From assembly GCA_040954595.2 (NCBI GenBank), contig CM082578.2:14802998-14866997 (forward strand): DNA of 64,000 nt. The letters are read 5' to 3'. The notes under the pieces are model-generated. The model ran no database searches and was not told the origin of the DNA. It saw only the letters and a program-made list of their open reading frames with translations. The translations under genes were made by a program, and so were the position numbers. Of this stretch, positions 41,701 to 44,291 are shown piece by piece. Within the stretch, counting starts at the first letter, position 1, and every line of letters starts with the position of its first letter. Origin of the DNA: Balanoglossus misakiensis (lineage: Eukaryota > Animalia > Hemichordata).

Positions 41701-44291
41701 CTGTCATCGTGAAACTGCTCAATTTGACAAACTGGAATTTCTCCTTTTGTCTCTGTCAGTTTTCTAGTCATCAGTCTCTTACATGTATAAACACAAATCA
41801 TTTTCTCTGCCTACATATCTGATGTTTTAATAATTATAGACAATGCTATCTTAACGAGAAAAGTCAGTCTGACAGTGTACGTCATGCAGTCTTTCTGTCC
41901 TGATTGTACTGTATAGCATTTTGGGGGGAAAAACACTATCAGCATGTCTTGCGGTGCCATGTCACTATTCGGGCGTGGAAGCGCTGGGATGGTAAATGAG
42001 GGGTCAAGTGACTTCATTTCTAAGTTGGATTTAGGGAGGGGGGCAGGGGGAGTGATGATAAAACTTTGATGATAACCATATATATTAACATATTGGTTGA
42101 GTTTAAGAAGCTGAAGAGGATTGTCAGTCCATATGTAGAGTTATAACCAAGTCAGTCCAGAATCAATTCACTGCGGACATGCATTAATTGTGTTGATACT
42201 GGGAATAAATTGCAAGATGTTTCTATTGACAGTTGGTCATGCCAGAGTATATAAGTTGGTGACGTTTACTTTCAGCTGGGAAAGAGCGGGAAAAAAACGT
42301 TAGTCATGAAATGAGGATGACCCTTGCCAGGGTGAAAAGGCCACGGCACATGCTCTATTAGTTTCTAGCGGAAGCTTTCCCAGATTTCTCGAGCAGGTGT
42401 GGAAGTGTGCAATGATGCCATGATCCAGGACGAGGATTGTCGGGTACTTACTGGGAACACCCGAGACCAACCGCAGTGGTCTCAGTACACGGAAAGCTCG
42501 CAAAGCCTTCACATCAAAGCCTTCTTGTGTGGCCAAATTGGCTCTATTTAAACCTTCACTTAATATTCTGTGGGTAGAGAGAAGAAGGGGAAGTGAAGAA
42601 AAAAAACATACAACAGACAACGATGTAATGGGACGTTTGACTTACTCGGCACGCCTGTTATTAGTCTTAGCGGTCTCAGTACACGGAAGGCCCTAAGAGC
42701 TTTCACATCAAAACCGTGCTGGTCCAAATTAAAAAAATCTAAAATAATGGTTACAATTCTGCAAGGACAAAAATGTCAGAGATTAGTACTCAAACTTCAA
42801 GCCATTAGGTAATCATTAAAAAACAAACACAAAAATGATACTTATTCAAAAAAAAAAATTGAGAAAAAAAGACAAAGATAAACAGAAATTTTAATTATTA
42901 ATTCAAGAAGATAAAAGATCAATTTGGTGTTGAAGACAGAGGTACATGTAAATGTATGACCAGGAATGGGTCAGTTTATAATTAAGGTATTTGTCAACTG
43001 ACTAGGAAGAGTATGTAATAAAACTTGGAAAGAACAACATGCTTTTTCAAGCATTTTTCTCATTAAAAATGTGAAGTTATTTATAAATAGGTATTTGTTA
43101 TGTGGTTATTTTTGTCAGTACAATGTGGTTATTCTGGATTTGGGTAAGAGCTATGCATATCAATTAGGTTATACTGCACACATGTAGATCTCAGTGGTGG
43201 TAAATGATCACAAGGCAAAGTTTGAGTGTACCTAACCCTCATACCATCAGCTATCAAGTTGTTATTATGGCAATATATGCTCAGAACACTATGTTAGCAG
43301 ATTTATACAAGTCATGTTACATGTATTTTTCCAAGTTTAATATTAATTTTACAAGGTTATTTGTAAGCTAAGAAATTATATCATCAAAAGAAATGATACA
43401 ACACTGAAATATTCCAGAAAATGATTATTTTATCATTTTTTTGTCCAGACTAGTGACAGTCATAAACATTTTTGTTGGATTAATGTGGAAAAAACAGATC
43501 ACTTTTGCCATGGTATATTTAAATTTGCCAAATATTGACAAGATTCTGGTTTCAAAGTGAAACTGTGGGCCCTTGACGGTTCTGACATGAAAATTGAGGA
43601 TAAGATCTGAAAATTGAAATTCTCCACTTTTTCAATATCAAATGCATTGCTTGACCAAACTTTGCAAAAGGGTAGTTCTGAACAATTACCCAAATATTTC
43701 TGTTATATAAATGGCCAATTATTGACAAACGTGATTCCATAAATCAACAATCCAATGTAGGAATTATGAGATATGCAAACCAATCACACAAAGGTACCAC
43801 TCATTCTGCAGGAAATGGGACTTCCTCTCTTTATTCGACCACACACTTGCATCATTCTCTCCTGCCAATCAAATCCCTTGAAGCGCCCATGCCCTTCTGA
43901 TTTTTGTCTCAGCTTTAAAAGGGACAGAGTCTCTCTCTCTCTCTCGCTGCCCTTTTTCCATTAATTATGTGATACAAGACACTGTTTATGTTATCAAACA
44001 TAACTAATAGAAAAGGGTCAGCAAGAGAGAGACTTTGTCCCTTTAATGACACAATTCACAGAAACCCTTTCATACAACAATTGCCCAATTTACATCTCCC
44101 AGCTACCTGTTACTGTTATTACACATTCCATGAGTATATTTAGAGACTTACCCTATAACAACAATTATAAAATCTAGAATGTTCCATGCATTCCTAAGGT
44201 ATGCACCACTGTGAAGTAGAAACCCATATGCAAGAATTTTCAAAACTGCTTCTAATGTAAATATGACGAGGAAGGCGTACTCAACATTCTC
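8447..44291 (-). CDS. Cav1: Voltage-dependent L-type calcium channel subunit alpha-1 (Cav1, CACNA1C/D-like), 5'-partial; 41 exons in the window, 2089 aa
   Basis: Exons joined with consistent phases total 6270 nt with no internal stop. There are four S4 segments, pore glutamates TMEGW/TGEDW/TFEGW/TGEAW, the [17 protein letters not shown], the IQ motif [14 protein letters not shown], the [18 protein letters not shown], the [23 protein letters not shown] and the C-terminus MVYVTTL*. From recall, several exon sizes (e.g. 140, 104, 60, 84) match vertebrate CACNA1C. Confidence 0.97.
8935..9285 (-). CDS. Cav1: Cav1 penultimate exon
   Basis: [11 protein letters not shown]...GSATSLVSH; continues LAQAQ|AMAVAG, and GSAxSLV is typical of Cav1. 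Confidence 0.9.
11162..11663 (-). CDS. Cav1: Cav1 exon, Pro/Thr-rich distal C-terminus
   Basis: ESLVPEPPE...PPTPPPRR...LPLKLAQAQ; phase 2 to 0. Confidence 0.85.
12037..12243 (-). CDS. Cav1: Cav1 exon, distal C-terminus
   Basis: [37 protein letters not shown]...YREHYR; phase 2 to 2, matching both neighbours. Confidence 0.75.
13415..13444 (-). CDS. Cav1: Candidate optional 30-nt Cav1 C-terminal exon
   Basis: CCTTTTAG|C TGG ACA AGT CTT TTT GAT GTC ATC CAA CG|GTACGT; phase 2 to 2; [11 protein letters not shown]. Confidence 0.5.
13663..13753. mobile_element. Degenerate inverted copy of the same MITE family
   Basis: TTAACCTTTCCACACCC...GGGGGTGAAAGGATC; similar length and ends to the two better copies. 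Confidence 0.45.
14440..14792 (-). CDS. Cav1: Cav1 exon, Ser/Pro/Asn-rich C-terminal segment
   Basis: RSHSLFG...NSRRPSKAR; phase 0 to 2. Confidence 0.85.
14973..15098 (-). CDS. Cav1: Cav1 exon, PCRD
   Basis: [23 protein letters not shown]...EPSHR. Confidence 0.93.
15349..15488 (-). CDS. Cav1: Cav1 exon, calmodulin-binding IQ motif
   Basis: [29 protein letters not shown]. Confidence 0.95.
16657..16758 (-). CDS. Cav1: Cav1 exon, pre-IQ
   Basis: [34 protein letters not shown]; 102 nt. Confidence 0.95.
17054..17156 (-). CDS. Cav1: Cav1 exon, proximal C-terminus
   Basis: [34 protein letters not shown]; 103 nt. Confidence 0.95.
17511..17607 (-). CDS. Cav1: Cav1 exon, proximal C-terminus
   Basis: [32 protein letters not shown]; 97 nt. 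Confidence 0.95.
17918..18045 (-). CDS. Cav1: Cav1 exon, end of IVS6 and EF-hand
   Basis: [42 protein letters not shown]; 128 nt. Confidence 0.95.
18249..18405 (-). CDS. Cav1: Cav1 exon, domain IV pore and IVS6
   Basis: [14 protein letters not shown]...[14 protein letters not shown]. Confidence 0.95.
18751..18842 (-). CDS. Cav1: Cav1 domain IV turret/pore-helix exon, alternative copy B
   Basis: [31 protein letters not shown]; 92 nt, TAG/GTATGT. Confidence 0.9.
18976..19067 (-). CDS. Cav1: Cav1 domain IV turret/pore-helix exon, alternative copy A
   Basis: [31 protein letters not shown]; 92 nt, CAG/GTATGT. Confidence 0.9.
19861..19926 (-). CDS. Cav1: Cav1 exon, IVS5
   Basis: [22 protein letters not shown]; 66 nt. 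Confidence 0.95.
20098..20220 (-). CDS. Cav1: Cav1 exon, IVS4
   Basis: [41 protein letters not shown]. Confidence 0.95.
23137..23163 (-). CDS. Cav1: Candidate optional 27-nt exon in the Cav1 IVS3-S4 linker
   Basis: Pyrimidine-rich tract then CTCTAG|CGG AGC TTA ACT AAA CAG GGA AAT GAT|GTAGGT; phase 0 to 0; RSLTKQGND. Confidence 0.45.
23310..23357. repeat. Perfect 24-bp tandem duplication
   Basis: GAGTTGTAGCTATGGCAACATGGC occurs twice in tandem. Confidence 0.9.
24006..24060. repeat. Degenerate (GGAT/GGAG)n microsatellite
   Basis: ggagggatggatggagggatgaacggagggaaggttggatggatggatggatggg. Confidence 0.65.
24191..24274 (-). CDS. Cav1: Cav1 exon, IVS3 (single copy; equivalent of vertebrate exon 31/32)
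   Basis: [28 protein letters not shown]; 84 nt. Confidence 0.95.
24406..24516 (-). CDS. Cav1: Cav1 exon, IVS2
   Basis: [37 protein letters not shown]; 111 nt. Confidence 0.95.
24945..25103 (-). CDS. Cav1: Cav1 exon, III-IV linker and IVS1
   Basis: [27 protein letters not shown]...INTITLAMK; 159 nt. Confidence 0.95.
25332..25533 (-). CDS. Cav1: Cav1 exon, IIIS6
   Basis: [67 protein letters not shown]; 202 nt. Confidence 0.95.
26059..26205 (-). CDS. Cav1: Cav1 exon, domain III pore loop
   Basis: GQYIMY...[23 protein letters not shown]. Confidence 0.95.
26417..26577 (-). CDS. Cav1: Cav1 exon, IIIS5
   Basis: [53 protein letters not shown]. Confidence 0.95.
26848..26938 (-). CDS. Cav1: Cav1 exon, IIIS4
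   Basis: [30 protein letters not shown]. Confidence 0.95.
29406..29500. mobile_element. 95-bp MITE with a perfect TTAACCCTTTCACC/GGTGAAAGGGTTAA inverted repeat, in a Cav1 intron
   Basis: 14-bp perfect inverted termini including TTAA at both ends; the internal sequence is shared with 5002-5095. Confidence 0.75.
30529..30534 (-). CDS. Cav1: Candidate 6-nt microexon in the Cav1 IIIS3-S4 linker
   Basis: TTTTTGCAATCTAAATAACCTAG|TGTACG|GTGAGA; frame-preserving, with a T-rich tract and a CTGAC upstream. Confidence 0.4.
30901..31007 (-). CDS. Cav1: Cav1 exon, IIIS3
   Basis: [35 protein letters not shown]; 107 nt. Confidence 0.95.
31527..31586 (-). CDS. Cav1: Cav1 exon, IIIS2 (single copy; equivalent of vertebrate exon 21/22)
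   Basis: [20 protein letters not shown]; 60 nt. Confidence 0.93.
31711..31840 (-). CDS. Cav1: Cav1 exon, IIIS1
   Basis: [34 protein letters not shown]; 130 nt. Confidence 0.95.
32425..32581 (-). CDS. Cav1: Cav1 exon, distal II-III loop
   Basis: [11 protein letters not shown]...[32 protein letters not shown]. Confidence 0.92.
32789..32855 (-). CDS. Cav1: Cav1 small exon, II-III loop
   Basis: [22 protein letters not shown]; phase 0 to 1. Confidence 0.75.
33272..33305 (-). CDS. Cav1: Cav1 small exon, II-III loop
   Basis: [11 protein letters not shown]; 34 nt, phase 2 to 0. Confidence 0.75.
33752..33995 (-). CDS. Cav1: Cav1 exon, end of IIS6 and start of the II-III loop (possible internal donor after 33878)
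   Basis: [40 protein letters not shown]...RDGKR; the exact donor is uncertain. Confidence 0.85.
33996..34120 (-). other. U12-type (minor spliceosome) GT-AG intron within IIS6
   Basis: The 5' end reads GTATCCTTTC. The branch site TTCCTTGAC lies about 13 nt upstream of the 3' end, and there is no long pyrimidine tract. Confidence 0.9.
34121..34241 (-). CDS. Cav1: Cav1 exon, domain II pore and IIS6
   Basis: [20 protein letters not shown]...[10 protein letters not shown]; 121 nt. Confidence 0.95.
34781..34991 (-). CDS. Cav1: Cav1 exon, IIS5
   Basis: [43 protein letters not shown]...LLTVFQ. Confidence 0.95.
35238..35463 (-). CDS. Cav1: Cav1 exon, IIS2-IIS4
   Basis: [22 protein letters not shown]...[18 protein letters not shown]; 226 nt. 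Confidence 0.95.
35910..36070 (-). CDS. Cav1: Cav1 exon, IIS1
   Basis: [45 protein letters not shown]; 161 nt. Confidence 0.95.
36273..36366 (-). CDS. Cav1: Cav1 exon, I-II loop
   Basis: [32 protein letters not shown]; phase 1 to 2, as required by its neighbours. Confidence 0.85.
37719..37754 (-). CDS. Cav1: Candidate optional 36-nt Cav1 I-II loop exon
   Basis: Pyrimidine tract then TTTCAG|TC TTA TGG AAA AGA TTT GGT ACA CTT ACT ACA AAA G|GTAGGA; phase 1 to 1; [12 protein letters not shown]. Confidence 0.45.
39119..39175 (-). CDS. Cav1: Cav1 exon, I-II loop
   Basis: [19 protein letters not shown]; 57 nt, phase 1 to 1. Confidence 0.88.
39332..39447 (-). CDS. Cav1: Cav1 exon, AID (beta-subunit binding site)
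   Basis: [38 protein letters not shown]. Confidence 0.95.
39577..39680 (-). CDS. Cav1: Cav1 exon, IS6 (single copy; equivalent of vertebrate exon 8/8a)
   Basis: [35 protein letters not shown]; 104 nt. Confidence 0.95.
39739..39833. repeat. (ATG/CAT)~31 trinucleotide microsatellite abutting a Cav1 splice donor
   Basis: Near-perfect ATG run with one GTG interruption; on the - strand it starts right after GTAAGT. Confidence 0.97.
39840..40021 (-). CDS. Cav1: Cav1 exon, domain I turret and pore loop
   Basis: [34 protein letters not shown]. Confidence 0.95.
40357..40509 (-). CDS. Cav1: Cav1 exon, IS5
   Basis: [46 protein letters not shown]. Confidence 0.95.
42452..42567 (-). CDS. Cav1: Cav1 IS3b-S4 exon, alternative copy B
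   Basis: [38 protein letters not shown]; 116 nt, phase 2 to 1, CAG/GTAAGT. Confidence 0.9.
42646..42758 (-). CDS. Cav1: Cav1 IS3b-S4 exon, alternative copy A
   Basis: [37 protein letters not shown]; 113 nt, phase 2 to 1, CAG/GTAAGT. Confidence 0.9.
44152..44291 (-). CDS. Cav1: Cav1 exon, IS2-IS3 (first exon in the window)
   Basis: [47 protein letters not shown]; 140 nt, AG/GT. Confidence 0.95.

Follow-up and report, generated by a model that had tools for sequence, protein, structure and literature searches.

Does a calcium-channel gene of a hemichordate carry two interchangeable versions of the voltage-sensor paddle of its first domain, and, if so, what would the choice between them change and how old is it? 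The question is raised by a stretch of 64,000 nucleotides (nt) of Balanoglossus misakiensis (assembly GCA_040954595.2, contig CM082578.2, positions 14,802,998 to 14,866,997 of the forward strand), hereafter the window. Its minus strand holds most of the alpha-1 subunit gene of a Cav1 (L-type) channel with two tandem copies of exon 5, here 5a and 5b, each encoding the second half of segment S3 (IS3b), the S3-S4 linker and segment S4 (IS4) of domain I. The reading favoured here, at a probability of about 0.7, is that this old tandem exon, in the animal's single L-type gene, is spliced one copy at a time, which would give channels with the same S4 charges and different S3b-linker paddles, differing chiefly in the speed of activation.

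Two copies of exon 5 in a Cav1 gene

Exon 5a (42646..42758, minus strand, 113 nt) ends in the tail ITGVP and exon 5b (42452..42567, minus strand, 116 nt) in the common tail VSGVP; the 78-nt intron between them (42568..42645, minus strand) contains a long pyrimidine tract. Each copy runs from phase 2 to phase 1, with an AG acceptor and a GTAAGT donor. They share as flanks exon 4 (44152..44291, minus strand, 140 nt, IS2 to IS3a, matching Pfam Ion_trans), which ends in phase 2, and exon 6 (40357..40509, minus strand, S4-S5 linker and IS5), which starts in phase 1, both taken as constitutive. The frame is open from exon 4 through 5a to exon 6 and likewise through 5b. Inclusion of both copies leads to a stop at codon 87, counted from the start of exon 4 and falling two codons into 5b, and omission of both to a stop at codon 94. 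The locus thus combines the features by which tandem exons are recognised, namely homologous exons between the same flanks, matching phases and a frame broken by double inclusion, together with coding constraint and usable splice sites on both copies.

The acceptors of 5a and 5b score 10.9 and 9.2 and the donors 8.9 and 8.4. These values lie a little under the medians for 23 other exons of the gene (11.9 for acceptors and 10.8 for donors; the ends of these exons were placed automatically and a few are probably wrong) and within the gene's own range. The first-pass annotation, a model's reading of the letters of this DNA, had proposed the two exons with these lengths and phases and a frame shift on joint inclusion, and all of this was recovered at the same positions on the minus strand, the computed path giving the stop at codon 87; the splice sites that it had called strong are present with the expected AG and GTAAGT, but their scores are ordinary.

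In the 23 codons from GFDVK onwards, 9 are identical between 5a and 5b, 12 differ synonymously and 2 non-synonymously, which bears out the earlier description of a shared S4 core with many synonymous differences. Over the 22 codons of the S4 core the proportion of synonymous differences (pS) is 0.83 and that of non-synonymous differences (pN) 0.064. Judged by sequence, the S4 cores are synonymously saturated and near-identical in protein, far from either chance resemblance or a fresh copy, and since so high a pS accompanies so low a pN, the duplication is old, with both copies long held at the protein level. All the S4 gating charges are identical in the two copies, and the S4 core of 5a aligns to residues 230-253 of human Cav1.2.

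The paddles do differ, as had been proposed at first pass, but not completely, for they match in 6 of 16 aligned columns, including N-L and Q-x-G (shuffle p-values for the paddle alignments, low in all pairings, were set aside). The linker has 15 residues in 5a and 16 in 5b as against the usual 13, and mean paddle hydropathy is +0.84 in 5a and -0.30 in 5b. When residues are placed by counting from the alignment of exon 4 to Cav1.1, 5a has an Asp at position 140 within a hydrophobic stretch and 5b has Glu137, Gly138, Asn140 and Arg141 within an amphipathic one.

Either-or use of the two exons is likely from this anatomy, because their frames are incompatible, both are under purifying selection and a parallel pair occurs in a bivalve-like contig (L050, described below); the mutual exclusion claimed earlier is supported on these three counts, from anatomy and not from RNA. 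Nonsense-mediated decay of premature-stop messages is well established, and by the frame paths it would destroy messages with both copies or with neither, leaving the exclusive forms. The 78-nt intron, the shortest mapped in the gene (the next has 125 nt), might assist by sterically blocking the joining of 5a to 5b. It has branch-point-like A residues 20 and 52 nt from the donor, near the steric minimum for splicing of about 50 nt. Pairing of docking-site and selector RNA is one possible mechanism of exclusion; the 25 longest of 49 inverted repeats included no shared arm that would pair with sites beside 5a and 5b alike. Choice of 5a or 5b would be regulated by tissue or stage. Related inverted-repeat arms of 17-35 nt recur in introns 4 and 5 (43918-44047, 41186-41205 and 40898-40922) and resemble the ends of a small repetitive element.

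The part of the host gene inside the window extends over 8450..44291 (minus strand), from exon 4 (44291) onward, and comprises domains I-IV, the IQ domain and a C-terminus ending in VTTL near 8450. Pfam domains Ion_trans, Ca_chan_IQ and CAC1F_C were identified, and the gene is placed in Cav1 by four Ion_trans repeats, the IQ domain, a Cav1-type C-terminus and best matches to L-type channels. A PDB search with the window protein ranked Cav1.3, Cav1.2 and Cav1.1 over Cav2 and Cav3. The sole match of the C-terminal exon, one among 117 candidates (proteins of up to 2000 residues), is Cav1 of the sea star Patiria miniata, at 47% identity, and the two genes also share C-terminal motifs, a resemblance indicative of an ambulacrarian. 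Residues 1-45 of exon 4 align to Cav1.1 87-131, with the equivalents of E87, E90 and D126 kept. Exons 1-3 were not found by tblastn and profile scan of window positions 44292-64000, which puts the probable length of intron 3 above 19.7 kb.

Exon 5 in other animals and the origin of the pair

A metagenome scan, from which the best 80 of 229 confirmed stretches were taken (many of them redundant), gave one locus, L050, with a pair at the same exon and in the same order. Both of its copies are intact, with 107 nt and phase 2 to 1, and they lie 373 nt apart. The first carries the non-canonical tail VSRAP; the second carries VSGVP and differs by a single residue from that of the bivalve Tegillarca granosa (KAJ8301679). 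One exon 5 between exons 4 and 6 was found in 33 of the 80 loci, the others being spliced or nearly intronless (19), with one flank (17, including L050) or with none (11). Because these 33 loci hold a single exon 5 between both flanks, the pair is, on the sequences surveyed, absent from many lineages.

A VSRAP-tailed exon is also joined to exon 6 in gene model ELT95844 of Capitella teleta. Among the best 150 of 930 results of a profile search for further exons, those with RAP or QAP tails comprise this Capitella model and, for the remainder, fragments; such tails occur in 9 of 230 distinct paddle/tail pairs and VSGVP in 179. The RAP-tailed type, in which IS4 gains an Arg at its inner end (L050 3025-3131), was seen in proteins P0032-35, P0278, P0281, P0296, P0297, P0320 and P0341, and its peptide strings were not found in the literature searched. 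ESM Atlas assigned only Ion_trans to the Capitella fragment. Among proteins of up to 2000 residues, neither paddle was found in a close relative when homologues of 5a and 5b were sought (best 120 of 128 and best 120 of 3306); scans of viral contigs (0 of 119 stretches) and of prokaryote genomes (7 loci) contributed no further information. Eight isoform models of Patiria begin after IS5, without domain I S1-S5, and hence do not cover exon 5.

These data bear on whether the pair of the window and that of the lophotrochozoans descend from one duplication or arose independently, and the chances of an independent origin are judged to be slightly better than even. Exons 5a and 5b have in common the longer linker (15/16 residues) and the motif N-L..Q.G; the tail of 5a is ITGVP, not of the RAP type. 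A tree joining 5a with 5b was kept by the approximately unbiased (AU) test (p-AU 0.62), with a log-likelihood 2.27 better than that of the free quick search. Moreover, the accessible part of PMC9741552 counts ten independent events for the Cav genes of human and fly, each at a different exon (this and the other papers cited are drawn on in part). A single origin, on the other hand, would agree with the like exon order in the window and L050, and with the paddle of 5a scoring 29 against the first exon of L050 and at most 15 in the other five pairings. The top 3 of 230 matches of the 5a paddle are likewise RAP or QAP exons, two of the three retrieved with queries that contained 5a, and gene conversion could explain the linker common to 5a and 5b.

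The exon trees were built from 35 columns and from 40 and 26 hand-picked rows, with 0 and 1 starred branches, respectively. In the 40-row tree the first exon of L050 falls in a group of RAP exons with Capitella and without 5a (support 90/90, not starred); in the 26-row tree the branch that sets the RAP exons and 5a apart from the rest has support 0. A clade of L050's own two exons was rejected in the latter tree (p-AU 0.003). The sequences suggest that the split between the two lophotrochozoan exons predates molluscs and annelids, although just one of them was seen in Capitella.

In the first seven residues 5a resembles the long-linker, vertebrate-type exons and 5b the protostome type, and position 7 is acidic in 29 of 30 long-linker vertebrate-type exons as against none of 68 with 13-residue linkers, these rows not being independent. 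Mann-Whitney values for this comparison and for the 230-pair matches are inflated by related sequences, and those for the 230 pairs also by query bias. In a wider scenario, which is rather doubtful, the sole L-type channel of the last ancestor common to protostomes and deuterostomes would already have had two alternative paddles in domain I. Both would survive in molluscs and acorn-worm-like animals, the b type in arthropods and nematodes, and an a-like S3b helix in vertebrates. On this view, splicing would first have switched between the fast and slow L-type currents that were later assigned to separate genes, Cav1.1 and Cav1.2.

Precedents and the predicted effect of the choice

The closest functional precedent, which was absent from the first-pass annotation and lowers the novelty of the mechanism, is provided by vertebrate sodium channels. 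Nav1.1, 1.2, 1.3, 1.5, 1.6 and 1.7 have tandem, mutually exclusive exons 5N/5A (6N/6A) in domain I S3-S4 with stage-tuned gating (PMC13011093). In both cases a four-domain channel has tandem exons where domain I passes from S3 to S4. However, between the Nav1.5 copies 7 of 30 residues change, whereas the paddle of 5a/5b is largely rewritten and one residue longer or shorter with the S4 charges the same, and the use and effect of 5N/5A have been shown in a sodium channel, whereas 5a and 5b are known from sequence; as a Cav1 gene, the host falls outside the Nav pair.

The exclusive IS4 pair of the Drosophila Cav2 gene cacophony, invoked at first pass, is borne out by PMC11828482, which describes IS4A and IS4B as both of 99 nt and different at 13 of 33 residues, one positive charge among them. 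This pair, too, is a duplicated exon over IS4 in an invertebrate with one calcium-channel gene per family, and 5a and 5b would work in a like manner. It nevertheless belongs to Cav2 and affects activation voltage and active-zone localisation, whereas 5a and 5b, with 113 and 116 nt and identical charges, belong to Cav1 and are not members of it. Protein P0319 comes from an open reading frame that spans a cacophony-like tandem of two Cav2-type IS4 exons.

Within the Cav1 family, vertebrate Cav1.2 has exclusive pairs at exons 8/8a, 21/22 and 31/32. Three tandem pairs each are reported for human CACNA1C and CACNA1D and two for fly Ca-alpha1D (PMC9741552), so that the window gene shares with its family a tendency to tandem exon duplication; if the cacophony IS4 pair is among the ten events counted there, it would follow from the accessible text that IS4 is not the site of any Cav1 event in human or fly. 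Exons 12a/12b of invertebrate Cav3 and 15a/15b of NALCN are old pairs lost in vertebrates (PMC4436565). The NALCN pair, reported there from molluscs, annelids, echinoderms and hemichordates, has the distribution suggested for the exon 5 pair; both alter the pore and ion selectivity, whereas 5a and 5b concern the voltage sensor. An exon pair at IS3-S4 of Cav1 was not found described in the literature searched, outside which lie most subscription papers (with much of the work on Lymnaea and Aplysia Cav1), figures and the NCBI isoform annotation of hemichordates and molluscs, where both forms may already be recorded, and none is mentioned in the accessible portions of PMC6259924 or PMC3634016. 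By sequence, the pair is genuine and old and most likely a functioning switch between exons. It would represent a known mechanism at a site for which no Cav1 case emerged from that literature, and it occurs in two animal groups or more.

With regard to gating, faster or slower opening is predicted with better foundation than a shift in voltage, because the S4 charges are identical and because swaps of IS3 and the linker in Cav1.1 changed kinetics and not the voltage of half-maximal activation (V1/2). Nakai in 1994, as cited in PMC4886277, reportedly obtained fast activation in Cav1.1, with no significant change in V1/2, by swapping IS3 and the linker. Cav1.1 with IS3 and the IS3-S4 linker of Cav1.2, or with a change of the linker alone, activates fast with little change in V1/2 (PMC4886277). 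These chimeras exchange nearly the same segment as 5a/5b, but they were built from two paralogous channels and take in the whole of IS3, whereas the exons would be exchanged from IS3b onward within one gene. The hydrophobic paddle of 5a and the amphipathic paddle of 5b would set different rates of S4 transition in domain I, and the Asp of 5a would lie roughly a helical turn past the site equivalent to the counter-charge D1196 of domain IV. The functional swap proposed at first pass, in activation voltage, kinetics or toxin sensitivity, is accordingly narrowed: kinetics is its best-founded component, while identical S4 charges and the nearly unchanged V1/2 of the Cav1.1 swaps speak against a shift in voltage, and an effect on toxin sensitivity would be conjectural.

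Several observations weigh against regulated exclusive use with an effect on activation speed. L050 is the only one of the 80 loci with a pair; the records from Capitella and Tegillarca, both predicted gene models, contain one exon 5 each, and one version each was found in the isoform sets of Tachypleus, Centruroides, Myxine, Scaptodrosophila, Vanessa and Bemisia. With an intron of 373 nt in L050, a steric block is neither conserved nor required. The kinetic precedent is Cav1.1, and fluorometry cited in PMC4886277 indicates that voltage-sensing domain I (VSD I) contributes little to gating of Cav1.2; the effect of the swap could thus be small. The counter-charges that set kinetics and voltage of VSD I in Cav1.1 are E87 and E90 of IS2 (PMC8099428), whose equivalents lie in exon 4 and are common to both isoforms. 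A role of E140 of Cav1.1 was dropped as support, there being 0 occurrences of it in the accessible text of the same paper.

Exclusive splicing might instead serve chiefly to alter activation voltage, localisation, or sensitivity to partners or gating-modifier toxins. The cacophony isoforms do differ in activation voltage and active-zone targeting (PMC11828482), the paddles of 5a and 5b differ in hydrophobicity and charge placement, and the first exon of L050 carries an extra Arg at the inner end of S4 (VSRAP). The identical S4 charges of the window's two exons and the nearly unchanged V1/2 after the IS3-linker swaps in Cav1.1 (PMC4886277) are contrary to a voltage shift, and this alternative appears unlikely. 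It is more improbable still that only 5b makes a working channel, with 5a a minor or regulatory exon triggering decay on co-inclusion, or an unused relic. Such a role would suit the common VSGVP tail of 5b (that of 179 of the 230 pairs) and the stop that co-inclusion brings two codons into 5b; a poison or dead exon, however, needs no conservation of its protein, whereas 5a and 5b differ by 12 synonymous and 2 non-synonymous changes, and the splice sites of 5a score as well as those of 5b. An assembly artefact, with two haplotypes or paralogues collapsed in tandem, is extremely improbable, for the synonymous saturation far exceeds allelic difference, a profile scan of the gene found only exon 5 and one domain IV exon doubled, and the unrelated contig L050 has a matching layout.

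A second exon pair, neighbouring features and significance

The other doubled exon is a tandem pair of 92 nt each at 19067-18976 and 18842-18751 (minus strand), encoding the turret and P1 helix of the S5-P loop of domain IV. The copies share 10 identical codons out of 30, with 9 synonymous and 11 non-synonymous differences, and inclusion of both shifts the frame; the acceptor of the second is weak (score 1.7). One version each of this exon is present in the isoforms of Patiria (8), Tachypleus (5), Bemisia (9), Cherax (4) and Bombus (3). In combination with the exon 5 pair, the domain IV pair would allow four forms of the channel.

Exon 8, for IS6, is single (39680-39577, minus strand) and has short introns on both sides; isoforms X1 and X2 of Patiria have two alternative versions of IS6, like the vertebrate 8/8a. 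A micro-exon of 36 nt in the I-II loop (37754-37719, minus strand) matches a 12-residue segment that is optional in Patiria, being absent from X5. A long (ATC)n microsatellite (about 39740-39835) directly follows the donor of exon 7, and two near-identical tandem copies of a phosphotriesterase-family gene (PF02126; 1-3900, plus strand) lie tail to tail with Cav1.

In most invertebrates one Cav1 gene serves muscle, heart and neurons (PMC3634016), and a natural swap of the segment that governs activation speed in vertebrate chimeras would show how a single gene covers several roles. Exons 5a and 5b are ready-made variants, with identical S4 charges, for probing the domain I paddle in an L-type channel. 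Taken with Nav 5N/5A and cacophony IS4A/IS4B, they would show that duplication has struck the domain I S3-S4 exon repeatedly, in three families of channels, and if the pair is common to molluscs and annelids, the cloned invertebrate Cav1 channels may each represent one of two forms.

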